Assembly (NCBI GenBank): GCA_024654485.1
Contig: JANLHO010000057.1
Location: 1 to 38,422 of the forward strand
Direction of reading: 5' to 3'
Length of the DNA: 38,422 nt
From: Patescibacteria group bacterium
GTDB taxonomy: Bacteria > Patescibacteriota > Minisyncoccia > Phycocordibacterales > UBA2100
Shown here: in pieces, positions 2,677 to 36,262 of the stretch
Position numbering within the stretch: position 1 is the stretch's first letter
Layout of the letters: each line of letters begins with the position of its first letter
Notes under the pieces: model-generated
What the model saw: only the letters and a program-made list of their open reading frames with translations
Told to the model about the DNA's origin: nothing
Databases searched by the model: none
Translations under genes and position numbers: made by a program

Positions 2677-3099
2677 ATGTTGGCACCAAAAAAAGCAAAA
2701 TATCGCAAGTGGCAGACCGGACGCAGGAATCCGGCGCGTCTCCTGCGCCCCGAAACGCGCGGCATCACCGTGAACTTCGGTTCGTATGGTGTGAAGGCGA
2801 TGAGTCCCGCGCGCATCACATCCAACCAGCTTGAGGCCGCGCGTCGCGCGCTCTCTCGCGCCGGCGGCAAAAGCTCCAAGATATGGATACGGGTGTTTCC
2901 CGACCGACCGTTCACGAGAAAAGCCGCGGAGGTCGGCATGGGAAGCGGTAAGGGAGACGTAGCGGGTTATGTGGTGGAGGTGCGCCCCGGCCGCGTTATT
3001 TTTGAGATAGACGGCGCACCGGAAGAGGTGGCGCGTGAGGCACTACGCAAAGCGGGGACGAAGTTGCCCTGCAAGGTGCAGGTCATAGCACGCAACTAA
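2677..3099 (+). CDS. rplP: 50S ribosomal protein L16
   Basis: 140 aa starting MLAPKKAKYRK; L16 family and operon order. Confidence 0.96.
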   Translation: MLAPKKAKYRKWQTGRRNPARLLRPETRGITVNFGSYGVKAMSPARITSNQLEAARRALSRAGGKSSKIWIRVFPDRPFTRKAAEVGMGSGKGDVAGYVVEVRPGRVIFEIDGAPEEVAREALRKAGTKLPCKVQVIARN

Positions 3100-3100
3100 T

Positions 3101-3310
3101 ATGGCATCGGAATTTTCAAAAAAGGGGATAGGGGAATTGCGCAAACTTATTGCCGACAAGCGAGAGAGCCTGCGCAGCTTTCGTTTCGGGGGAGCTGGCT
3201 CACGCACACGCAACACCCGTGAAGGAAGGATGCTTCGCAAAGACATCGCGAGGATCCTCACGGAGATAAAAGCTAGGGAGATTGATTCTAAGCGTAAAAT
3301 CGCGTCTTAG
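3101..3310 (+). CDS. rpmC: 50S ribosomal protein L29
   Basis: 69-aa basic helical ORF starting 1 nt after the rplP stop, in the conserved position between rplP and rpsQ. Confidence 0.9.
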   Translation: MASEFSKKGIGELRKLIADKRESLRSFRFGGAGSRTRNTREGRMLRKDIARILTEIKAREIDSKRKIAS

Positions 3311-3465
3311 TGAAATAAGGAGCGAAGCGACTATATTTCACTTGACCCGCCTAAATTTTGAAAACCATCAAAAGCGTGATATAAAGCCGCATCCGCTATC
3401 AGTACAAATTCATTATGAAAGGCTGCGTGGCAAATTTGGGCGGGTGTAAGAGTTTCTAACTCACT
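3311..3465 (+). repeat. Structured intergenic element, family A copy 1
   Basis: 5' hairpin AGTGAAAT/ATTTCACT with loop GAGCGAAGCGA. Outer stem 3345-3358/3432-3445 (ACCCGCCTAAATTT/AAATTTGGGCGGGT). Tail TTCTAAC at 3454-3460. Confidence 0.75.
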
Positions 3466-3741
3466 ATGTTCGTAAGAACTTCTAACACAGGGAAAACATT
3501 TCAGGGCGTTGTCGTTAAGGCGGCGATGAAAGACACTGCGACGGTGATGGTTGAACGCTACGTCAAGCACCCCACATACAGAAAGTATCTCCGCAAAAGC
3601 CAGAAATTCCTCGTACACGATCCGGGCAACACGGCACAGGTAGGCGAGAAGGTCACAATCAAAGAGACCCGCCCTATCTCCAGGCGCAAGCATTTCATTC
3701 TGGTCTCCGCGCAGGGTTCGCCGGACGCGGGCACAAAATAG
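3466..3741 (+). CDS. rpsQ: 30S ribosomal protein S17
   Basis: 91 aa with [28 protein letters not shown], an S17 OB-fold signature. Confidence 0.93.
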
Positions 3742-3745
3742 GCAT

Positions 3746-4126
3746 ATGATTCAACCGCAAACCATAGTAAAGGTAGCCGATAATTCCGGAGCGATACTCG
3801 GACGTGTATTCAAGGTGCTCGGCGGTTCCAAGCGTCGGTATGCGCAGGTGGGCGATGAAGTCGTTATATCCATCCAGAGTGCACAGCCGCGCAAGAGCGT
3901 GAAGAAGAAAGAAGTGCATCGCGCTGTCGTCGTACGTCAGGCCAAAGCCCTGCGGCGCAAAGACGGCTCGTATGTGCGCTTTGATGAGAATGCGGTAGTG
4001 CTCATCACCGGGAGCGGCAAAGAGCCAAAGGAGCCTAAAGCAAACCGCGTGTTCGGACCGATACCGCGCGAACTCGTGGAAAAAGGATACCAGCGCATAG
4101 GTTCGCTGGCGGCTGAGATAGTGTAA
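3746..4126 (+). CDS. rplN: 50S ribosomal protein L14
   Basis: 126 aa starting [16 protein letters not shown]. Confidence 0.96.
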
Positions 4127-4157
4127 ATCAGGCAGCAAAGTAGTGAGAGTAATCCAT

Positions 4158-4466
4158 ATGAAATTAAAGAAAGGAGACAAAGTAATAGTCATCGCGGGCA
4201 AAGACAAGGGGGCCGTATCTACGGTCGTGCGTATCATACGCGATAGGGACCTTGTCATCCTTGATGGCGTCAATATCGCGAAGAAGCACCGCAAGCCTTC
4301 CGCCCAGAACCGTACGGGCCAGATAGTAGATAAAACGATGCCCATACACGTGTCCAACGTAATGCTGGCGGACCCGAAGACGGGCAAGCCTACCCGTATC
4401 AGGATAAGTCGCGAGAAGGGGGATAGGCGGAGGGTCGCCGTGAAAAGCGGGCAACAGGTGAATTAA
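4158..4466 (+). CDS. rplX: 50S ribosomal protein L24
   Basis: ATG 4158 gives MKLKKGDKVIVIAGKDKG (KOW motif). The ORF opens at GTG 4143. Confidence 0.93.
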   Translation: MKLKKGDKVIVIAGKDKGAVSTVVRIIRDRDLVILDGVNIAKKHRKPSAQNRTGQIVDKTMPIHVSNVMLADPKTGKPTRIRISREKGDRRRVAVKSGQQVN

Positions 4467-4495
4467 TCCCCGATTTCGTGTATACCTACCAAGAT

Positions 4496-5032
4496 ATGAA
4501 TGCAACAACCACAGCACGGCACAAGACATTTGACGCTCTCAAGAGCGAATTTGGCTACACGAGCGTGATGCAAGCGCCGCGAGTCGGCAAGATAGTTGTA
4601 TCTACGGGCGTCGGTTCGCTTAAGGACAAAAAGAAGCTTGAGCTCATCGTTGACCGCCTTGCGCGCATCACCGGCCAGATACCGGCGCCTCGCGGGGCGA
4701 AGAAATCCATAGCGAATTTCAAGATACGCTCGGGCGACATCGTGGGGTATCAGGTGACCCTGCGGGGAGCAAGAATGCGGGCTTTCCTTGATAAGCTCAT
4801 ACACATAGTGCTGCCGCGCATGAAGGACTTTCGCGGACTGAAGCCCACGGCCATAGACGAAATGGGCAACATCACAATCGGACTCAAGGAGCACACCGTA
4901 TTCCCCGAGACCTCGGACGAGGATGCGAAAGACGTATTCGGCCTCTCCATCACCATCACGACCAGTGCCAAGAACGAAAAGGAGGCCCAGGCCTTCCTGA
5001 GGCATATAGGCCTCCCTCTCCGCGAAGAATAA
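4496..5032 (+). CDS. rplE: 50S ribosomal protein L5
   Basis: L5 family (PRVGKIVVSTGVG). ATG 4496 is preferred over GTG 4478. Confidence 0.93.
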   Translation: MNATTTARHKTFDALKSEFGYTSVMQAPRVGKIVVSTGVGSLKDKKKLELIVDRLARITGQIPAPRGAKKSIANFKIRSGDIVGYQVTLRGARMRAFLDKLIHIVLPRMKDFRGLKPTAIDEMGNITIGLKEHTVFPETSDEDAKDVFGLSITITTSAKNEKEAQAFLRHIGLPLREE

Positions 5033-5186
5033 ATCGTTTCGCAAGCACGCAAGATTGTTCTCCTCAGAACAACTAATAATTGTACATCCCTAAAAATACG
5101 CCATAATATCAGGACATCCCTCAATAGAGAGTTATTCAGACTTATTGATCAGCGGTACAACATTGCCCGGTGAAAAGACCTTAGGT

Positions 5187-5215
5187 TTGACTTTGCCTGA
5201 CCAATCGTCTATAGT
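5187..5215 (+). promoter_or_regulatory. Near-consensus sigma70 promoter inside the rplE-rpsN spacer
   Basis: TTGACT (5187-5192), exactly 17 nt, TATAGT (5210-5215). Confidence 0.6.
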
Positions 5216-5245
5216 GCCCCTGCCTCGTAAGGGGCTTCGTTTTTT
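5216..5245 (+). terminator. Terminator-like hairpin abutting the -10 box
   Basis: GCCCCT (5216-5221) pairs with AGGGGC (5230-5235), followed by TTCGTTTTTT. Confidence 0.45.
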
Positions 5246-5361
5246 AGCAAGTCCCGCCAACGGCGGGATACTGCGAGAAACGGGGCACGGGGAAACTCTC
5301 TAACCCAACATCCGAAAGGTGGGGTGCCGGAGCTTCCAAACTCCTTCCGCGGCTCATATCT

Positions 5362-5547
5362 ATGGCCAAAAAATCAATGATAGTGAAGGCGAATCGCAAG
5401 CCTAAATTTTCCAGTCGCACCGTGCGGCGCTGCTTCAAGTGCGGACGCCCGCGCGGCTTTATGCGCGATTTCAACCTCTGCCGCATCTGCTTCCGGGAAG
5501 AGGCTCTTGAGGGGCACATACCCGGCATCAAAAAAAGCTCATGGTAG
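5362..5547 (+). CDS. rpsN: 30S ribosomal protein S14, short zinc-ribbon (type Z) form
   Basis: 61 aa with [10 protein letters not shown]...CRIC (two CxxC pairs). Confidence 0.93.
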
Positions 5548-5566
5548 TTCGACTACTCTCACCACT

Positions 5567-5962
5567 ATGGTAAACGACCCGGTAGGAGATTTCATAGCCC
5601 GCATTATGAACGGTGGCGCAATACGCAAGGCGTCGGTCTCTATCCCTTTCTCCAATTTGAAAATGGCGATAGCGGATAAGCTGAAAGAAACGGGACACGT
5701 AGCCTCCGTGGATAAGAAAGGGAAGAAGGTGCGCAAGACATTGGACATAACGCTCAAGTACGATGAGAGCGGAGCATCTGCTATACGCGGCGCAAGGCGC
5801 GTTTCCAAGCCGGGCCGGCGCGTCTACAAGAGGGCGCAGGAGATTACGCCGGTGCGCGGTGGAAGAGGCGTTCTTTTTCTCTCAACTCCTCAGGGCATCA
5901 AGACCGGTGCCGAAGCACGAAAAGAGCATGTCGGCGGCGAGGCGCTTTTTGAGATTTGGTAA
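5567..5962 (+). CDS. rpsH: 30S ribosomal protein S8
   Basis: ATG 5567 gives MVNDPVGDFIARIMNG, an S8 N-terminus. Confidence 0.95.
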   Translation: MVNDPVGDFIARIMNGGAIRKASVSIPFSNLKMAIADKLKETGHVASVDKKGKKVRKTLDITLKYDESGASAIRGARRVSKPGRRVYKRAQEITPVRGGRGVLFLSTPQGIKTGAEARKEHVGGEALFEIW

Positions 5963-5967
5963 TCAAT

Positions 5968-6513
5968 ATGAGTAGAATAGGCAAACTTCCAATAAATATC
6001 CCGTCGGGCACCGACGTGTCTGTGGCCGGAGGCGAAATAGTCGTCAAAGGCAAAAGCGGTACGCTCAAGCGCTCTCTGCACCCGGCCGTCTCGGTCGTCG
6101 TGGAAAGCGGTGCAGTGAAGGTCGCTCCCGCGCAGAGCTCCCGTCAGGCGCGCGCGCTTTGGGGCACTTACGCGGCGCACGTGAACAACATGATACACGG
6201 TGTCAATACGCCGTTCGTGAAAAAGCTTCAGATAGAGGGGATAGGATACCGCGCCGAGATGTCCGGCAAGCAGCTGAAGCTTATGCTCGGGTTCTCGCAC
6301 CCGGTCGTGATAGAAATACCCGAAGGCATCACGGTCTCCGTAGAGAAGAATATAGTCGCCGTCTCCGGTGCCGACATAGAGCAGGTCGGAGAGTTTGCGG
6401 CAAGCGTCCGCGCTATACGTAAGCCCGAGCCGTACAAGGGCAAGGGCATCCGCTACGAGGGTGAGGCGGTAAGACAGAAGCAGGGCAAGAAAGCCGCAGC
6501 CGCAGCCGCATAA
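5968..6513 (+). CDS. rplF: 50S ribosomal protein L6
   Basis: ATG 5968 gives MSRIGKLPINIPSG, an L6 N-terminus. Confidence 0.95.
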   Translation: MSRIGKLPINIPSGTDVSVAGGEIVVKGKSGTLKRSLHPAVSVVVESGAVKVAPAQSSRQARALWGTYAAHVNNMIHGVNTPFVKKLQIEGIGYRAEMSGKQLKLMLGFSHPVVIEIPEGITVSVEKNIVAVSGADIEQVGEFAASVRAIRKPEPYKGKGIRYEGEAVRQKQGKKAAAAAA

Positions 6514-6534
6514 AATCGTTGAACAGAAAACAAT

Positions 6535-6879
6535 ATGAAATCCATAAAATCCAGCAAACGAGAACGACGGCACGCACGCGTACGTGCGAAGGTGGCGGGC
6601 AGCGCGAAGCGCCCGAGGCTGTCTATCTACAAGTCCAACACGCGCATAATCGCACAAATCATAGACGACGAAAAAGGTACGACGATCGCATCCGTGTCGT
6701 CGCTTGGTGAAAAAGGCAAGAATCCGCGCGAGAGGGCAGAGATGGCGGCGGCAACGCTCGTCAAGAAAGCCGCTGCAGCCGGCGTGAAAGAGGTTGTGTT
6801 TGACCGCGGCGGGTTCCAATATCTCGGTACGATAAAGACGTTCGCCGAAGCAGCCCGCGCCGCAGGATTAAAATTTTAA
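6535..6879 (+). CDS. rplR: 50S ribosomal protein L18
   Basis: 114 aa with RHARVRAKV...PRLSIYKSN...FDRGGFQYLG, L18 signatures. Confidence 0.93.
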   Translation: MKSIKSSKRERRHARVRAKVAGSAKRPRLSIYKSNTRIIAQIIDDEKGTTIASVSSLGEKGKNPRERAEMAAATLVKKAAAAGVKEVVFDRGGFQYLGTIKTFAEAARAAGLKF

Positions 6880-7065
6880 AGAAGATGTTATGAGCAAAGC
6901 GAATTACATATACTTTACCCGCCTAAATTTTGCGTTCAACGTGATGCAGAATCACTCATTGCAGAGCAGTGTTGCTGCTCAAATCCCGAGTATGGCAAAT
7001 AAGATAAATTTGGGCGGGTGGAAGTTATTTCTAAACTCGTATACACTCGCTAAGAAAAACTAACC
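6880..7065 (+). repeat. Structured intergenic element, family A copy 2
   Basis: Loop GAGCAAAGCGA at 6892-6902. Stem 6917-6930/7006-7019 is identical to copy 1. Tail TTTCTAAAC plus the pre-ATG motif CTCGCTAAGAAAAACTAACC (7046-7065). Confidence 0.75.
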
Positions 7066-7659
7066 ATGGCCGCCGAAGCAGAAACAAAGACCGCACAGAG
7101 CAAAGAAGGCGCAGCATCTGCAGCGCCGCAGCGCCGCTCCATGCCGCCACATCGTGGAGCGCGCGGCCCTCGGCGCGGAGGTCCGCGCGATGATCGGCGC
7201 AGTGAATTCGCGCAAAAGCTGATAACCATTCGCCGCGTGGCGCGCGTCATGGCGGGCGGCCGCCGCTTCAACTTTTCCGCCGCGCTCGTACTCGGAGACA
7301 AAAAAGGTCGTGTCGGACTTGGCTTGGGTAAGGCTGCGGATACCGCTACGGCGATAGAAAAAGCGACAAGAGCTGCGAAGCGCAGCATGATAACGGTTGA
7401 CCTGACCAAGACACGCAGCATACCGCACGAGATAGAAGCGAAGTTCTGTGCATCCCGCGTTGCGATACGACCCAGCCCGGGCCGCGGACTCGTAGCCGGC
7501 TCATCCGTCCGCACCATACTTGAGCTTGCAGGCATCACCGATGTCACGGGGAAGCTTCTTTCGCGCAGCCACAATTCCATCAACAACGCCCGCGCCGCGC
7601 TGAAAGCTCTGCAGCAAATCGCCCCCGCGAAAGCCAAGCAGGTCACGGGCAAAAAATAG
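7066..7659 (+). CDS. rpsE: 30S ribosomal protein S5 (Arg/Gly-rich N-terminal extension)
   Basis: 197 aa with [29 protein letters not shown], an S5 core. Confidence 0.95.
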   Translation: [197 protein letters not shown]

Positions 7660-10876: not shown

Positions 10877-11455
10877 ATGGCAAAGCAGGTAGTCGTGATA
10901 GCGGGACCATCGGGTAGCGGGAAAAATACCGTGATAACGCGCATCATGCAGGGATGTCACAATTGCGCTCGTCTCGTCACCGCTACGACGCGCAGCATGC
11001 GTCCGGGCGAGGTGGACGGGGTGGACTACCATTTTTTTACGCAGGAGCGTTTTGACGAAGAGATGTCAGCCGGCAACATCCCCGAGCACCGCTTCGTTCC
11101 CGCGCTTGGCACCTACTACGGCACATATTTGCCGGACCTTGAAAGACGCATAAAGGACAAAAAGGTAGTTTTCGCGCAGGTGGATATAGAGGGGGCCAAG
11201 CTACTCAAGGAGCGCTACGGAGCGACCACCATTTTCATCATGCCGGAATCCGTAGAGCAGTTCCGCGCGCGCCTTCGCGCCCGCAATCCGGAGTGGAGCA
11301 AGAAAGAGTTTGAGGCGCGGATGGCTATCACCGAGAACGAGATGCGCGCTCATGCTCCCCAGTACGATTATCGTGTAGTCAACGCGGATGGCAGGCTGGA
11401 CGAAACGGCACGCGAGGTTGTGGAAATCTTGCGCAAAGAGGGATACAATCTCTAG
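10877..11455 (+). CDS. gmk: Guanylate kinase
   Basis: GPSGSGKNT P-loop and TTRSMRPGEVDGVDYHFF. An alternative start is ATG 10868. Confidence 0.85.
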   Translation: MAKQVVVIAGPSGSGKNTVITRIMQGCHNCARLVTATTRSMRPGEVDGVDYHFFTQERFDEEMSAGNIPEHRFVPALGTYYGTYLPDLERRIKDKKVVFAQVDIEGAKLLKERYGATTIFIMPESVEQFRARLRARNPEWSKKEFEARMAITENEMRAHAPQYDYRVVNADGRLDETAREVVEILRKEGYNL

Positions 11456-11600
11456 GAATTGTTATGAGCGAAGCGAATTATAATTTCTTGACCCTGTTTA
11501 ATCCCGCTAAAAGCGGGTCGCCGCAAAGCGGCGAATTTAACAGGGTGCAAGTGATTCTAACCTCCTCACTAACTGGCAAGTCGCCAAGAATCACTAACAT
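11456..11600 (+). repeat. Structured intergenic element, family A copy 3
   Basis: Loop GAGCGAAGCGA at 11466-11476. Compensated stem ACCCTGTTTAAT/ATTTAACAGGGT (11491-11502/11535-11546). TTCTAAC at 11555-11561. Pre-ATG motif GTCGCCAAGAATCACTAACAT. Confidence 0.7.
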
Positions 11601-12188
11601 ATGAAGCCCCTAACGGTTCTTTTTTTCGGGTCGCAAGGGGCCGGCAAGGGGACGCAGGTCAAGATGCTCATGGATTTGCTGCGCTCCAAATCCGACAGGG
11701 AAATTATCCGCATAGACATGGGTCAGGAATTGCGGAACTTGAGGGACACCGGCACGTATGCGGGGAAGCTGACGGGCGAGATAATAGACAACGGAATTCG
11801 CATATATGATTTCATGGCTATTTATCTTCAGACAAAGTTGCTGATGGAGAATTTTACGGGCGAAGAACACATAATAGCCGACGGTCTGGCTCGCGGCGAC
11901 GACCAGACGAGAGGGTTTGACGACATGATGAAATTCTTCAAGCGCGATGATCTTCAGGTGGTCAATCTTGTTATATCCGACGATACAGCGGTCAAGCGCC
12001 TCTTGGCGCGGGGCCGCAACGACGACACGGAGGAGGCGATACGAAGGCGTCTCGCGTGGACCAAGACGGATGTCCTGCCGCAGTTGGAGCTTTTGAAAAG
12101 CCGCGGGCGCACCGTACACGAAATAGACGGCGAGCCGGACGTCAAGACGATACACAATAATATACTCGCGGCACTCGGATTGTCATGA
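11601..12188 (+). CDS. adk: Adenylate kinase (short, no zinc lid)
   Basis: GSQGAGKGTQ P-loop, 195 aa, in the conserved position before map. Confidence 0.85.
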   Translation: MKPLTVLFFGSQGAGKGTQVKMLMDLLRSKSDREIIRIDMGQELRNLRDTGTYAGKLTGEIIDNGIRIYDFMAIYLQTKLLMENFTGEEHIIADGLARGDDQTRGFDDMMKFFKRDDLQVVNLVISDDTAVKRLLARGRNDDTEEAIRRRLAWTKTDVLPQLELLKSRGRTVHEIDGEPDVKTIHNNILAALGLS

Positions 12189-13641: not shown

Positions 13642-13701
13642 GTAGGCATATTACGGTGCTGGACAATGCAAGTTAACAATGCATCCGCCTATTCTAGAGA
13701 C

Positions 13702-13738
13702 GGTACAAATAAATGACACCTGTCATCCATTTGGTACC
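13702..13738. promoter_or_regulatory. 37-bp dyad, candidate operator copy 1
   Basis: GGTACA-AATAA-ATGACA-CC-TGTCAT-CCATT-TGGTACC, immediately 3' of the regulator stop codon. Confidence 0.5.
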
Positions 13739-14312: not shown

Positions 14313-14319
14313 ATTATGC

Positions 14320-14355
14320 GGTACAGATAAATGACACCTGTCATGTAATTGTACC
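14320..14355. promoter_or_regulatory. 36-bp dyad, candidate operator copy 2 (regulator/purD divergent region)
   Basis: GGTACA-GATAA-ATGACA-CC-TGTCAT-GTAAT-TGTACC. On the minus strand it contains TACAAT (14348-14353). Confidence 0.5.
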
Positions 14356-14396
14356 ATCCGGAGGAGTTCTCGGTAATGGATGACGATGAACGGTGA

Positions 14397-19992: not shown

Positions 19993-20040
19993 GTATACCA
20001 CCACACCCACTTAGTGCACTAAGTGGGTGTGGTGGTATAC
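19993..20040. repeat. Perfect 48-bp palindrome, family P copy 1
   Basis: GTATACCACCACACCCACTTAGTG followed by its exact reverse complement. Confidence 0.85.
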
Positions 20041-22886: not shown

Positions 22887-23075
22887 CTAATTTGTGCTTG
22901 GCAGGAAACGACTGCGGTTTTTGCCCGTCATCTCCATGCTGGAAGGGCGCTTGCGGCTCATGTGGCTGGAACCGGAGTCTTTAGCGTTGAAGTGATTCTG
23001 CCCCGGCGAGCGCGAGACTATCTTGCCGCGCTTCGTGACGCGCAGGCGTTTGGTATATGATTTGTTGGTTTTCAT
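22887..23075 (-). CDS. rpmI: 50S ribosomal protein L35
   Basis: 62-aa basic ORF MKTNKSYTKRLRVTKRGKI between infC and rplT. Confidence 0.9.
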   Translation of the reverse strand: MKTNKSYTKRLRVTKRGKIVSRSPGQNHFNAKDSGSSHMSRKRPSSMEMTGKNRSRFLPSTN

Positions 23076-23125
23076 ACGTTTTTGATTTGCATACCCCGTG
23101 GCGACGCTCCGCGCCGCTTTACGGG
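23076..23125 (-). repeat. 50-nt hairpin-containing insert flanked by a 12-nt duplication of the rpmI start
   Basis: GTTGGTTTTCAT occurs at 23064-23075 and again at 23126-23137. The internal inverted repeat is ACCCCGT (23093-23099) with ACGGGGT (23121-23127). Confidence 0.65.
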
Positions 23126-23137
23126 GTTGGTTTTCAT

Positions 23138-23313
23138 ATCTTAGAGATTCTTAGCGAGCGCCACGAGCGTTAGAAGCTCTTAGACCCGCCTAAATTTGCC
23201 GAAGCAAAAGGCCGAAAAATCGGCCGTGCGGGAACTATACCGCATTGATTGCCTAGGTGCAACTTTAGAGCCAAATTTGGGCGGGCAAGGTAAAACAGTA
23301 CTTATTTTACGTC
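23138..23313 (-). repeat. Structured intergenic element, family A copy 4 (minus strand)
   Basis: Read on the minus strand: 5' hairpin GTAAAA...TTTTAC (23290-23310), stem arms at 23273-23285 and 23184-23197, TTCTAAC (23169-23175), and pre-ATG motif CTCGCTAAGAATCTCTAAGAT (23138-23158). Confidence 0.7.
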
Positions 23314-23925
23314 TTACTCTTCGGGTGCCGGTTTTGGGGCAGGCGATACCTCCTTGGGCGCCGGCTTTGGCGAGGATTTCTTGGACGAGTCGCGCTCAAT
23401 GACCACCGAGAGACCTTTGGGGCTTTTCTGTATCTGCTCGGCCACCTTGTAGTTTTCGGGTATTACGGCGAGGAAACGCTCAAGCCTCTCCTTGAGGAAA
23501 TCAAATTCCATGTATTTGTATCTGCCCCACAGGAAGAGGTCTATCTTGACGCGATGGCCTTCCTTGAGCCAGACGGCGGCCTTGGAGGCTTTTATATGCA
23601 TGTCGCGCTCCGACGTACCTATCTTTACCTGCGTCACTTTTGTCTCCGTAACGTGCGCTTTCGCCTTCACGCCCTTTTCTTTCTTTTTCTGCTCGTATTT
23701 GAATTTCCCGTAGTCAGTTATTTTGGCGACAGGCGGCTTGGCGCCCGGAGATATCTCTATGAGATCCAGACCAAGCTCCTTCGCCTTTGCGATGGCTTCG
23801 CGCACGGGCAAGACACCGAAGTTCTCTCCTTCGGGCCCGATGACGCGCACTTCCGCCGCACGGATGCCCTCGTTCATGCGCGTGCGCGCTTTCTCCGCCT
23901 GTGAAGTATACTTTGTAAATCCCAT
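23314..23925 (-). CDS. infC: Translation initiation factor IF-3
   Basis: NEGIRAAEVRVIGPEGENFGVL and the C-terminal IF-3 domain. Has a Pro/Lys-rich tail. Confidence 0.93.
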   Translation of the reverse strand: MGFTKYTSQAEKARTRMNEGIRAAEVRVIGPEGENFGVLPVREAIAKAKELGLDLIEISPGAKPPVAKITDYGKFKYEQKKKEKGVKAKAHVTETKVTQVKIGTSERDMHIKASKAAVWLKEGHRVKIDLFLWGRYKYMEFDFLKERLERFLAVIPENYKVAEQIQKSPKGLSVVIERDSSKKSSPKPAPKEVSPAPKPAPEE

Positions 23926-26266: not shown

Positions 26267-27676
26267 ATGCACTACGTTTCCACGCGCGGAGGGGGTGAGC
26301 CGCAGACATTCTCCAAGATACTGCTTGAGGGTCTATCGGCCGACGGCGGCCTTTATGTGCCGGAAGAATATCCGCAAGTGACGACCGAAGAGCTTGCGAA
26401 TATGCGCGGTATGAGCTACTCCGAGCTCGCCTTCGCCGTTCTCTCCAAATATATAGACGACATTCCTCCGGAGGAGCTGCGTAAGATGATATCTGAGACG
26501 TATACGAAAGAAGTGTTCGGCACCGATGAAGTAGTTCCGGTGCGCGAGTTGGGAAAAGGACTATTCCTTCTGAATCTCTCCGAAGGCCCTACGCTCGCTT
26601 TCAAAGACATCGCCTTGCAGCTTCTGGGCAGGCTCTTTGAGCACGCGCTCGCGCGAAGCGGCGAGGAGCTCAATATTTTCGGGGCCACTTCGGGCGACAC
26701 TGGAAGCGCCGCGGAATACGCGATGCGCGGCCGCAAGGGCATTCGCGTCTTCATGCTCTCTCCGCACGAGCGCATGAGCCCTTTCCAGCGCCGGCAGATG
26801 TACACGCTTCAGGACGAAAATATTTTCAACATCGCCGTTCTGGGCACTTTTGACGATTGTCAGGACGTGGTGAAGCAGGTGAATGCCGATGCCGCTTTCA
26901 AGAGCCGCTATCATCTCGGTGCCGTCAATTCCATCAATTGGGCGCGCATCGCGGCGCAGGTCGTCTACTACTTCTGGGGATACTTCAAAGCCACGCGTTC
27001 AAACGACGAACAGGCGGATTTCTCCGTCCCGACGGGCAATTTCGGCGACATACTCGCGGGCTACATAGCCAAGCGAATGGGTCTTCCGGTGAGGAGGCTC
27101 ATCCTCGCGACCAACGAAAACAACGTTCTTGAAGAATTCTTCTCTACCGGCAAGTACCGGCCGCGCACGGGTGCCGAGGTCGCCACCACATCCAGCCCTT
27201 CCATGGACATTTCCAAGGCCTCAAATTTTGAGCGCTATGTATTTGACCTAGTCGGGCGCGACGGCACGCGAATGCGGGAGCTTTGGGATGCGCTCGGCAG
27301 TGAAGGCGCTTTTGATGTCGCCGATTCGGAAGATTTCGCGCGAGTCGGGGAGAGCGGCATCGTCGCCGGCTCCTCCGCGCACGCCGACCGCGTCCGGACG
27401 ATACGCGCCATCTTTGAGAAATACGGCGTCCTCATAGACCCGCATACGGCCGATGGGGTCGCCACCGGTCTGCGGCTTCGCGAGGGGGGCGTGCCGCTTA
27501 TCTGCCTCCAGACCGCGCTGCCGGAGAAATTCGCCGACACGATACGCGAGGCGATAGGACGCGAGCCGGAGGCGAGCGCGCGCTACGCGAAGCTCGCGGA
27601 CATGCCGGAGCGTTTTGAGGTATTCCCGCCAGAGGCGGAGAAGCTAAAACAATTCATAGCGGCGCACGCGCGTTGA
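26267..27676 (+). CDS. thrC: Threonine synthase
   Basis: MHYVSTRGG N-terminus and the PLP-lysine motif PTLAFKD; 469 aa. Confidence 0.95.
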   Translation: MHYVSTRGGGEPQTFSKILLEGLSADGGLYVPEEYPQVTTEELANMRGMSYSELAFAVLSKYIDDIPPEELRKMISETYTKEVFGTDEVVPVRELGKGLFLLNLSEGPTLAFKDIALQLLGRLFEHALARSGEELNIFGATSGDTGSAAEYAMRGRKGIRVFMLSPHERMSPFQRRQMYTLQDENIFNIAVLGTFDDCQDVVKQVNADAAFKSRYHLGAVNSINWARIAAQVVYYFWGYFKATRSNDEQADFSVPTGNFGDILAGYIAKRMGLPVRRLILATNENNVLEEFFSTGKYRPRTGAEVATTSSPSMDISKASNFERYVFDLVGRDGTRMRELWDALGSEGAFDVADSEDFARVGESGIVAGSSAHADRVRTIRAIFEKYGVLIDPHTADGVATGLRLREGGVPLICLQTALPEKFADTIREAIGREPEASARYAKLADMPERFEVFPPEAEKLKQFIAAHAR

Positions 27677-27685
27677 TTTGGCACG

Positions 27686-27723
27686 CCCCCACACCGACTT
27701 TTTTGGAAAAGTCGGTGTGGGGG
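27686..27723. repeat. 38-bp palindrome, family P copy 2
   Basis: CCCCCACACCGACTTTT-TTGG-AAAAGTCGGTGTGGGGG. GCACGCC lies on both sides (27681-27687 and 27730-27736). Confidence 0.8.
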
Positions 27724-27729
27724 TATAAT
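27724..27729 (+). promoter_or_regulatory. -10 box, leaderless-type spacing
   Basis: TATAAT directly abutting the palindrome, 7 nt before ATG 27737. Confidence 0.55.
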
Positions 27730-28533: not shown

Positions 28534-28554
28534 AACCCGTCATTCAGGGTTTTT
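28534..28554 (+). terminator. Weak terminator-like hairpin overlapping the GIY-YIG 3' end
   Basis: AACCC-GTCATTCA-GGGTT followed by TTT. Confidence 0.3.
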
Positions 28555-28812
28555 CGTTTCTAATCCCTCCTGATATCGCTCGATGAGCATCTCTTTCTTG
28601 CCGCAGCGCCACTTTTTTATCTGAATCTCACGCTTTCGCGCGTCGGCAAGCGCTTCGTATTGCTCTAAGAAAACTATCTCGAAAGTCGGGATTCTTCTTG
28701 TGAACTGTGCGCCGCGCCTGGCGTTGTGATGGGCGAGTCGTTGTTGTGGGTTATTAGTAACACCGACGTAGAGTTTGCTTGCGGAGTTGCGAATCATGTA
28801 GACGAAATACAT
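28540..28812 (-). CDS. GIY-YIG nuclease superfamily protein (UPF0213-like)
   Basis: 90 aa with YFVYMIRN...KLYVGVTNN...RLAHHN. Confidence 0.85.
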   Translation of the reverse strand: MYFVYMIRNSASKLYVGVTNNPQQRLAHHNARRGAQFTRRIPTFEIVFLEQYEALADARKREIQIKKWRCGKKEMLIERYQEGLETKNPE

Positions 28813-28824: not shown

Positions 28825-28914
28825 GTCCCTCGACGTTGCTCGGGACACCCGCCGCGCCCGAATGTAAGGTGGCTTGCCACGAGCAAGCCCCTCCTTTAGG
28901 AGGGGCGCGTCGAG

Positions 28915-29302
28915 TGGAGATGGAGGGAATTGCACCCTCGTCCAGAGAAGAGAATATGAACGCTTCTACACAACGTAGATCATCTTGAAGATTTAAGCGA
29001 TGCGCCTTAAAGATGAACGAAACGGCGCACTGCCGAGTCCCATTTCTTAGATACGGGCGGGACAGATCCGCATCAGTACTTGAAGTTTTTTTACGCCCTT
29101 TCAAGCTTGATCAAGCTTCGGCCTGAAGGACGGCGCTTAGGCAACGTATGCGTAAGCGGGCTGCAAGTCTGCCATCTGGATAGGTGACAAAATTGCCCGT
29201 GCTACTTTGTTCGCACTTGGATTTTGAGGCAGTTTCAAAAGATGCCCCAACTTTGTTGTGCACGCACATACTCCTATTTCCCTGTCGAAACTGATCATCC
29301 CC
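28915..29302 (-). ncRNA. ssrA: tmRNA (ssrA), CCA not encoded
   Basis: The minus strand starts GGGGAUGAUCAGUUUCGACAGGGA. The 3' end is GAGGG-UGCAAUU-CCCUC-CAUCUCC-A. The acceptor stem pairs with the 5' GGGGAUG, including G3:U. The tag frame ends ...ADLQPAYAYVA-UAA. Lies downstream of smpB. Confidence 0.85.
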
Positions 29303-36158: not shown

Positions 36159-36215
36159 CGTTCTTCTGTCTCGGCTGTTCTAAAACACATGCCTTTGCGC
36201 GGCTTGCGCGCGGGA

Positions 36216-36261
36216 GTATACCCCCACACCAACTTTGTACAAAGTTGGTGTGGGGGTATAC
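36216..36261. repeat. Perfect 46-bp palindrome, family P copy 3
   Basis: GTATACCCCCACACCAACTTTGT followed by its reverse complement. About 19 of 24 arm positions match copy 1. Confidence 0.85.
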
Positions 36262-36262
36262 T
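36257..36262 (+). promoter_or_regulatory. -10 box at palindrome edge, near-leaderless spacing
   Basis: TATACT, 8 nt before ATG 36271. Confidence 0.5.

Follow-up and report, generated by a model that had tools for sequence, protein, structure and literature searches.

Structured elements in essential-operon spacers of a Patescibacteria genome as probable derivatives of a GIY-YIG nuclease cassette

Four intercistronic elements and their helices

We analysed a 38,422-nucleotide (nt) stretch of DNA from a Patescibacteria group bacterium (contig JANLHO010000057.1 of assembly GCA_024654485.1; "the window" hereafter means this whole stretch), in which copies of one structured element lie between essential genes. 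The rpmC-rpsQ, rplR-rpsE, gmk-adk and infC-rpmI spacers are each filled by one copy, co-oriented with the flanking genes, which according to Pfam encode L29 and S17, L18 and S5, guanylate kinase and adenylate kinase, and initiation factor 3 and L35-L20, respectively. Each filled spacer extends from the upstream stop codon to the start codon of the following gene or close to it. Positions, orientation and flanking genes agree with a preliminary description of the window, which reported four modular, structured and strand-biased copies in essential operons. An alignment of 25 copies resolves the element into three helices, P1, P2 and P3, the two arms of P2 enclosing a core. The copies in the window and their parts, with scores in a covariance model search, are listed below; loci of the relatives compared carry L-numbers (L001, L033 etc.), and ORF stands for open reading frame.

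3308 to 3486, plus strand: copy 1 (rpmC-rpsQ), whole element, which opens with TAG, the stop codon of rpmC (3308-3310), and closes with the second CTAAC; 58.5 bits, E = 1.5e-10, and 92.1 bits over 3306-3489 in a further search
3310 to 3341, plus strand: copy 1, helix P1, GTGAAATA...TATTTCAC, capped by AGGAGCGAAGCGACT; it begins with the last base, G, of the rpmC stop codon
3345 to 3358, plus strand: copy 1, 5' arm of P2, ACCCGCCTAAATTT
3359 to 3431, plus strand: copy 1, core of 73 nt, in the place of the GIY-YIG ORF of full-length relatives
3432 to 3445, plus strand: copy 1, 3' arm of P2, AAATTTGGGCGGGT, with a U.G wobble at arm position 8
3448 to 3486, plus strand: copy 1, helix P3, 5' strand AAGAGTTTCT (3448-3457) and 3' strand AAGAACTTCT (3474-3483), then AAC
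6877 to 7065, plus strand: copy 2 (rplR-rpsE), 101.2 bits
6880 to about 7060, plus strand: copy 2, parts: P1 6880-6916, arms 6917-6930 and 7006-7019, core 6931-7005, P3 from about 7022 to 7060
7066, plus strand: ATG following the 3' end of copy 2, which has CTAACC after P3
6890 to 7063, plus strand: copy 2, ORF of 57 amino acids (aa) from the ATG in the P1 loop to a TAA 2 nt upstream of the rpsE ATG
11453 to 11600, plus strand: copy 3 (gmk-adk), 80.1 bits, E = 4e-15; ATG at 11601
11453 to 11546, plus strand: copy 3, gmk stop codon TAG 11453-11455, P1 11456-11488, variant arms 11491-11502 and 11535-11546
11503 to 11534, plus strand: copy 3, core with two short hairpins
11550 to 11558 with 11587 to 11595, plus strand: copy 3, P3, perfect over 9 bp
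23138 to 23316, minus strand: copy 4 (infC-rpmI), 44.3 bits, and 67.9 bits in the further search
23316 to 23290, minus strand: copy 4, infC stop codon TAA 23316-23314 and variant P1 23310-23290
23286 to 23184, minus strand: copy 4, arms 23286-23273 and 23197-23184, core 23272-23198
23180 to 23172 with 23151 to 23143, minus strand: copy 4, P3, then CTAAGAT and an ATG at 23136
23064 to 23136, minus strand: region downstream of copy 4, where the 12-nt sequence ATGAAAACCAAC is found at 23136-23125 and again at 23075-23064, the true start of rpmI

The covariance model, built from the 25 copies, gave exactly four matches in the window (E = 4e-15 to 1.5e-7), with the sense matches exceeding the antisense matches by 20-50 bits; the remaining matches (E >= 0.016) are unrelated palindromes. 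With up to three mismatches, the arm motif ACCCGCCTAAATTT matches the window 10 times, versus 2.99 +/- 1.52 times in shuffled sequences, and six of these ten matches form three arm pairs (3345-3358/3432-3445, 6917-6930/7006-7019 and 23286-23273/23197-23184). The arms of copy 3 are compensatory variants that are complementary to each other (ACCCTGTTTAAT/ATTTAACAGGGT). Each of the four spacers also folds better than its own shuffles (z from -2.5 to -5.6).

P1, a long hairpin rich in A and U, has the upstream stop codon within its foot, and its top consists of a covarying 2-bp stem and triloop above conserved tandem G.A/A.G pairs. P2 is formed by the 14-bp arms. P3 contains a small inner helix, P3b, and closes in CTAAC, 0-2 nt upstream of the downstream ATG. 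The motif AAG-N4-TCTAAC is found twice per copy, and the two occurrences are the two strands of P3, which shows compensatory pairs both in copy 3 (AGTGATTCT/AGAATCACT) and in relatives (AGATGTTGT/ACAACATCT, AGTTTG/CAAACT and AGACCGACT/AGTCGCTCT). The junctions between the helices are 1-3 nt long.

This anatomy upholds the outer stem that the preliminary description had drawn between 3345-3358 and 3432-3445, and revises several of its other modules. The loop motif GAGCRAAGCGA was found in copies 1-3 where it had been placed (3320-3330, 6892-6902 and 11466-11476), but copy 4 has a different 5' hairpin. The GCGAAGC mini-hairpin to which that loop had been likened turned out to be one variant of the covarying cap. 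What had been taken for a separate 3' tail is the 5' strand of P3, its partner lying just before CTAAC-ATG. Since the 3' strand of P3 in copy 1 is at 3474-3486, this copy ends at 3486, inside the annotated rpsQ ORF, and the end formerly given, 3465, is 21 nt too short. The rpsQ start codon (3466) therefore lies within the P3 loop; the N-terminus of S17 is as long as those of the relatives, and thus element sequence now encodes residues 1-7 of S17.

In the alignment made with MAFFT, 88.3% of the cells were paired, versus 79.0% in shuffles and 32-50% when the partners were slid. Changes on both sides were seen in 23 of the 38 pairs, and none of 500 shuffles reached the observed covariation score; the covariation that the preliminary description had asked for is thus present. 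At arm position 8 of P2 (3352/3438, 6924/7012 and 23279/23191 in the window), the 46 copies scored show C.A in 22, U.G in 12, U-A in four, A.A in four and C-G in none. The C.A and U.G states are two transitions apart and Watson-Crick intermediates are rare (4/46), which points to selection for a non-Watson-Crick pair. We rejected inversion of the arms with the core as the source of the two states, because copy 1 (U.G) and L033 (C.A) carry an ORF remnant (see below) in one orientation and because the core of L075 (U.G) matches a C.A core family in its orientation. An archaeal-type bulge-helix-bulge around the arms did not fit either, the internal loops being of 1x2 nt and not two 3-nt bulges. 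A second insertion port is found in the loop of P3: in the tails of L023, L079, L081 and L115, TTTC|TAAAC is interrupted by an additional hairpin rich in G+C, CCCGCCTGCGCC...GGCGGGCAGG, and a different long hairpin occupies the P3 loop in the tails of L060 and L091.

The core and its GIY-YIG reading frame

The cores of the family fall into three length classes, 5-14 nt, 72-102 nt and 267-268 nt, and those of copies 1-4 in the window measure 73, 75, 32 and 75 nt. The 268-nt cores of L081, L090 and L041 encode a GIY-YIG protein of 92 aa (pseudogenised in L041); the ORFs of the L081 and L090 cores match PF01541 with E = 2.3e-12 and 9.7e-15, respectively, and the nearest solved structures are those of the UPF0213 proteins EF2693 and BH0048. 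The full-length element is about 370 nt long and carries this 279-nt ORF inside the 14-20-bp inverted repeat of P2. In ORF-bearing copies the palindrome grows to 20 bp (…AAATTTTGAACG / CGTTCAAAATTT…), the ATG of the nuclease gene lies 6 nt past the 5' arm, directly at the top of the helix, and the 3' arm encodes the C-terminal SKFRRV, which is common to nearly all of 23 clusters of the protein, the stop codon lying within the following GTAAG. The ORF was found within the full P1/P2/P3 scaffold between a pilin gene and rpmG, between nusG and rplK, and between ssb and rpsR (L124, L125 and L131), and the pseudogenised copy of L041 is just upstream of an L35-like ORF, the same type of site as that of copy 4. 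The same scaffold thus occurs with an intact ORF, with remnants or cores of 72-102 nt, or with a bare loop of 5-14 nt. The relatives' ORF also gives a name to what the preliminary description had judged to fit no known class of repeat.

None of the four window copies carries an intact nuclease ORF, and they are best read as derivatives and not as autonomous members. The core of copy 1 begins with TGAA, and its positions 3375-3392 (CGTGATATAAAGCCGCAT) correspond to the ORF codons R-D-I-K-A-R, with CGTGATATAAAG-CGC kept. This 12-nt remnant, GTGATATAAAG-CGC, matches at 12 of 12 positions (E = 0.002), and the same piece is present in L033. A search of both strands of the window with nhmmer and a DNA profile of six ORFs gave a single match, at 3375-3392, which is weak by itself (E = 1.5) and falls inside the copy 1 core, which accounts for about 0.1% of the searched bases. 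Collinear similarity to the ORF is weak and at noise level in the cores of copies 2 and 4, and the core of copy 3 shows none. Among the cores compared, remnants rose above noise only in copy 1 and L033, plus- and minus-strand controls being alike for the rest. The core had been described as free and different in every copy, but a core unrelated to everything else does not hold for copy 1.

Other contents of the core were also observed. L131 has a tandem arrangement at 2888-3320, in which P1 precedes an empty P2 hairpin and, after a linker of 18 nt, a second P2 with the GIY-YIG ORF and then P3. An 81-nt core family, beginning CTCAACAAAC..TATGAACATC, is shared by L013, L020, L027, L043, L064, L074 and L088; four copies keep an open frame with conserved N-D-C and RNLGGCK.F and synonymous-type changes, and this core is possibly a micro-ORF or the remnant of a different cargo. 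The window itself also contains a free-standing GIY-YIG ORF of 90 aa (28540-28812, minus strand; PF01541, E = 1e-16), which belongs to a different subfamily. It lies directly downstream of the transfer-messenger RNA (tmRNA) gene (28912-29302, minus strand) and is preceded by GGCGGGTGT and a hairpin, without the P1/P2/P3 scaffold.

The arms were further observed around tRNA genes, in a nested, "Russian-doll" arrangement in which a whole tRNA (Pro, Glu-CTC or Met) lies between the arms GCCCGCCYAAATTT and AAATTTRGGCGGGT. Such loci are L050 (877-982), L010 (7562-7690), L108 (7069-7190, minus strand) and L048 (2349-2570, nested twice), and also L006, L037, L099, L100, L104 and L057. The arms occupy the place of the anticodon loop in an outer tRNA-like sequence, and in L050 the outer anticodon stem runs on as a 10-bp helix into the arms. 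When the insert was deleted, ARAGORN called the outer tRNA in L050 and in none of the other six nests, the test being invalid in about three of these (L010, L099 and L006), where the arms were mis-located. As cargo enclosed by the arms, tRNAs were found solely in this separate nest context and not in operon spacers; ARAGORN called no tRNA in the window and none in any operon-spacer core.

Distribution among relatives and fit into operons

A pattern scan with AAATTTRGGCGGGTNNAAG over one genome per species (596 Gb) gave more than 118 stretches, about as many as expected by chance; about 45 of them have a matching 5' arm, and essentially all of these are from Patescibacteria. The pattern-matched copies are in many metagenome-assembled genomes (MAGs) of Kaiserbacteria and Paceibacteria. 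In 59 Patescibacteria loci the covariance model identified 55 distinct copies, of which several often lie within 8 kb; these are the further copies that the preliminary description had called for. Scaffolds at unrelated sites of different genomes are 86-88% identical. Copy 2 was considered as a one-gene "hop" of the L001 element, but this found no support, as copies of other genomes are equally close or closer (86-88% to L075, L087, L022 and L001).

At the gathering thresholds of Rfam 15, the window matched only at the tmRNA (28912-29302). A permissive Rfam scan of 3250-7120 gave two chance-level matches, both outside the copies, and one of L001, L022, L045 and L050 gave a single tRNA; no intron or ribozyme model matched at E <= 10 in any of these scanned sequences. 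The known Rfam family that the preliminary description had named as a possible refutation was accordingly absent at either threshold. In the literature that we found, the family is undescribed.

Occupation of the spacers varies among close relatives. In L001 and L002, whose S5 is 97% identical, the rplR-rpsE and gmk-adk spacers, where copies 2 and 3 sit, are 12 and 2 nt long, while the rplF-rplR spacer, 21 nt in the window, holds an element with a 7-nt loop. The more distant relatives L003 and L005 have no element at the three ribosomal-protein sites. The infC-rpmI spacer is filled in one of the 36 infC loci compared (L168); the other infC loci have a spacer of 57-67 nt with a promoter-like box and a leader hairpin. 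We observed that in L138-L161 the box (TTGCGTTT…GGCATAMT) is conserved and the G+C hairpin leader precedes rpmI, which may be an L20/L35-type regulatory leader. Comparison of filled and empty spacers at three sites revealed no target-site duplication; the short native spacer is replaced.

Two single cases suggest, from sequence comparison, that flanking DNA is carried along with the element. Beside the L001 insertion, L18 differs wholly between the window and L001 in its first ~10 residues and is otherwise conserved. Downstream of copy 4, the pair of 12-nt ATGAAAACCAAC sequences of rpmI flanks a 49-nt leader that contains a hairpin; from the duplicated rpmI start, an upstream ORF of 20 codons (MKTNPVKRRGASPRGMQIKNV) runs to a TGA that overlaps the rpmI ATG. 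In L168, the same element tail abuts rpmI directly.

The copies are found solely between co-oriented genes. Upstream, a co-oriented ORF terminates within P1 or shortly ahead of it, 23-59 nt from the 5' arm, in nearly all pattern-matched copies, and where the tail has no extra hairpin, the downstream ORF starts 41-47 nt past the 3' arm. Downstream genes include rplC, rplJ, rpsL, rpsD, rpsM, rpsP, rpmE, rpoC, groEL, adk, rnpA and mraZ. All three frames meet a stop codon between the 3' arm and the start of the downstream host gene in 31 of 34 copies, versus 13.1 expected from shuffles, although the copies share ancestry and are not independent. ORFs from the ATG in the P1 loop run through the element in 12 of 23 copies, their stop codon lying in TTCTAA or 1-2 nt upstream of the host start codon (for example in copies 2 and 3 and in L001). 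Since these relay frames differ between copies, the peptide itself is unlikely to matter. The genes of the host genome, which is Kaiserbacteria-like, have no Shine-Dalgarno sequences upstream and native spacers are 2-14 nt long, and the relay frame could serve to preserve translational coupling.

The window contains other insertions and repeats. A 420-aa pyridoxal phosphate (PLP)-dependent enzyme gene (PF00291; 9585-10847, minus strand) lies antisense between secY and gmk, where L001, L003 and L005 have a spacer of 5-43 nt; this is another insertion in the ribosomal-protein operon, unrelated to the elements. Perfect 48-nt palindromes are present at 19993-20040 and 36215-36262, with a related third at about 27675-27725 (…CCCCCACACC…GGTGTGGGGGTATAMT). 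They are at gene starts or between divergent genes, with TATACT or TATAAT boxes, and probably are bidirectional promoters or operators. Upstream of two ORFs, including a purD-like gene at 14380, lies a 33-nt direct repeat, CGGTACARATAAATGACACCTGTCAT, whose copies at 13701-13733 and 14319-14351 are 88% identical. Short tandem repeats of the AGCGAACAG type are found at 1756-1796 and 2555-2581, in the 3'-terminal parts of rplV and rpsC and also in the rpsC-rplP spacer of 128 nt.

Origin of the elements and related systems

Because relatives carry the same scaffold with a 92-aa GIY-YIG ORF in its core, we consider it rather probable that the four spacers derive, with loss of the ORF, from a free-standing, homing-endonuclease-like cassette that is adapted to the operons of Patescibacteria (Kaiserbacteria/Paceibacteria). 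The nuclease would cut at or near element-free sites, and repair from an element-bearing copy would install the cassette, that is, homing, with some flanking DNA carried along. The ORF would then decay by internal deletion, leaving copies like those in the window. The scaffold would make residence in a tightly packed operon without Shine-Dalgarno sequences harmless: it would supply or embed the stop codon of the upstream gene, place stops in all three frames ahead of the next gene, often keep an open relay frame that ends 1-2 nt upstream of the host ATG, and bring along the fixed start context CTAAC-ATG. Both this mode of movement and the level at which the helices act, as RNA or as DNA, are what we infer from the comparisons above.

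Several points weigh against this derivation. Nuclease activity, target site and transfer are all deduced from sequence. The 92-aa protein is a catalytic domain only, without a recognisable DNA-binding domain, and in known GIY-YIG homing enzymes the specificity comes from the DNA-binding domain. One MAG contains a copy with an intact ORF (L090) alongside a hairpin-only one (L014), which argues that hairpin-only copies are not efficiently converted. Among the window copies, a clear ORF remnant was seen in copy 1 alone, and for copies 2-4 the order could be reversed, the ORF having invaded an older scaffold. Homing as proposed does not account for the clean placement from stop codon to ATG in new spacers without target duplication. 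Furthermore, counts of G.U versus A.C pairs (33 versus 16 in P1, 3 versus 10 in P3) leave the choice between RNA and single-stranded DNA undecided.

The same facts could be arranged differently if the scaffold were an intercistronic RNA module that serves the host, with P2 as a double-strand RNA processing site (e.g. for RNase III), P1 protecting the upstream 3' end, P3 protecting the downstream 5' end and setting the start context, and the nuclease gene a later squatter in the P2 loop. Such a module would explain why P1 and P3 covary strongly and why the tandem G.A pairs and the C.A/U.G states at position 8 are kept; it is also in keeping with the fixed spacing to the ATG and with the many copies upstream of highly expressed groEL, rpsL, rpoC, rplJ and adk, and the arms around whole tRNAs in other Patescibacteria suggest a general processing helix. 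We nevertheless consider it unlikely, though deserving of attention, because the filled spacers differ between genomes with 97% identical S5, most relatives are empty at these sites, the element is not tied to any particular gene, and element-free spacers of 2-14 nt evidently suffice. In addition, the ORF remnants mean that at least copy 1 and L033 descend from ORF-bearing copies. Considerably less probable again is a classical miniature inverted-repeat transposable element (MITE), whose arms would be terminal inverted repeats served by a transposase encoded elsewhere. The element is short and dispersed, has an inverted repeat and exists in long and short forms, and the compensatory arm variants of copy 3 and L168 are also expected for repeats bound by one protein. 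But the arms are internal, flanked by conserved P1 and P3 that are not inverted copies of each other; target duplications are absent from the filled versus empty comparisons; the sole ORF found within the arms is a GIY-YIG nuclease and not a transposase; and every copy is co-oriented with transcription and abuts a start codon.

Translation of the elements themselves, as genes for proteins of 30-70 aa starting at the P1-loop ATG or within the core, would agree with the read-through in the 12 of 23 copies mentioned above and with the four 81-nt cores, which share M-N/D-I...N-D-C...R-N-L-G-G-C-K with synonymous-type changes and no insertions or deletions. We find this no more credible than a MITE, since the ATG is not conserved (other copies have AGG, ACG, ATA or GTG there), the frames across the 3' arm vary (KFRRV versus NLGGCK), frameshifting insertions or deletions occur inside core families (L013 versus L020), and copies 1 and 4 have no such ORF. 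The least credible of all is an internal unit of terminator and promoter that re-starts transcription in long operons, even though TTGACC immediately ahead of the 5' arm and TAAACT in the tail recur in many copies and the core of copy 4 has a terminator-like hairpin followed by TTTT. Consensus scans of the four copies gave no consistent promoter or terminator, with counts not above those of shuffles, the hexamers are not conserved across copies, and no T run directly follows P2.

Among known systems, the logic of a nuclease cassette that decays in place would be, by analogy, that of the free-standing GIY-YIG homing genes of T4-type phages combined with MITE-like decay. The seg genes of T4-like phages are free-standing GIY-YIG homing endonuclease genes that perform "intronless homing" (PMC2988022). 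As in that case, the ORF lies between co-transcribed genes and not in an intron, its presence varies among close relatives, and there are signs of flank travel and of ORF decay. The present family differs in that the protein is a 92-aa, UPF0213-like catalytic domain only; a 14-20-bp inverted repeat encloses the ORF and two conserved, covarying hairpins flank it; one scaffold is found at dozens of unrelated spacers of cellular genomes; and ORF-less and hairpin-only derivatives outnumber intact copies. The Correia elements (NEMIS) of Neisseria and operon-resident MITEs are likewise short, dispersed and co-transcribed with operons, with a long inverted repeat, a predicted RNA hairpin, and full-length and internally deleted classes. 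In Correia elements, however, the repeats are terminal, TA is duplicated at the target and no ORF is enclosed, whereas here the repeat is internal, no duplication is seen, the orientation relative to transcription is fixed, and the parent carries a nuclease gene.

The nearest report is of GIY-YIG ORFs in non-intron insertions of rRNA genes of candidate phyla radiation (CPR) bacteria (PMC11270868). Going by the description given there, the likeness includes the same radiation, a GIY-YIG ORF, neither a group I nor a group II intron, and insertion at stem-loops; those insertions are in rRNA genes, whereas ours are in mRNA spacers with P1 and P3 tied to the stop and start codons. Integron attC sites resemble the element in their conserved paired ends, a centre whose length varies from a few nt to over 100, and a stem position conserved as unpaired or mismatched, but here there are no cassette arrays and the variable part is what remains of a nuclease ORF or the site for one. 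The attC core sites RYYYAAC/GTTRRRY are not matched, the ends here being ACCCGCC/GGCGGGT in single copies between housekeeping genes, and no integrase was seen in the loci viewed, beyond which no search was made. The preliminary opinion that the element is not a classical REP (repetitive extragenic palindromic sequence), MITE or attC is consistent with these comparisons. IStrons have been called "polite" mobile elements (PMC4227781), and they share with our family the principle of a selfish element with an RNA-level device that makes the insertion harmless to host expression; they splice out of genes by a group I ribozyme, whereas the present elements lie between genes and have no ribozyme match in Rfam. 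In the literature we found no counterpart of a palindrome-enclosed, domain-only nuclease, of the stop-to-start scaffold, or of the spread to multiple sites in cellular essential operons.

The genomes of Patescibacteria are tiny and tightly packed, so that dozens of insertions in their most essential operons are unexpected. If the elements are indeed derived from a homing-endonuclease-like cassette, they show a selfish nuclease cassette shaped for sitting between translationally coupled genes, in an organism without Shine-Dalgarno sequences. For annotation, a host start codon inside the element, as at copy 1, is a trap, and presence or absence per spacer, which differs even between near-identical relatives, provides strain markers. 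The 92-aa protein is a candidate for a GIY-YIG enzyme of minimal size, which may act on a DNA structure and not on a sequence. A broader proposal, which we put forward as speculation with rather poor prospects, poorer than those of the host-serving RNA module, is that the P2 arms act in Patescibacteria as a general cargo port, holding a nuclease gene or a tRNA in operon spacers, in tRNA anticodon arms and perhaps in rRNAs, with rescue by helix-directed excision or processing or by ribosome relay, and that the domain-only enzyme recognises the palindrome as hairpin or cruciform DNA, so that homing would be targeted to structure. This would be a new strategy of mobility and tolerance, possibly a protein-dependent system of intervening sequences in bacteria. 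Ribosomal-protein genes are often scored as horizontally transferred in Patescibacteria (PMC12455944), and the present family of elements may help to explain such reports.

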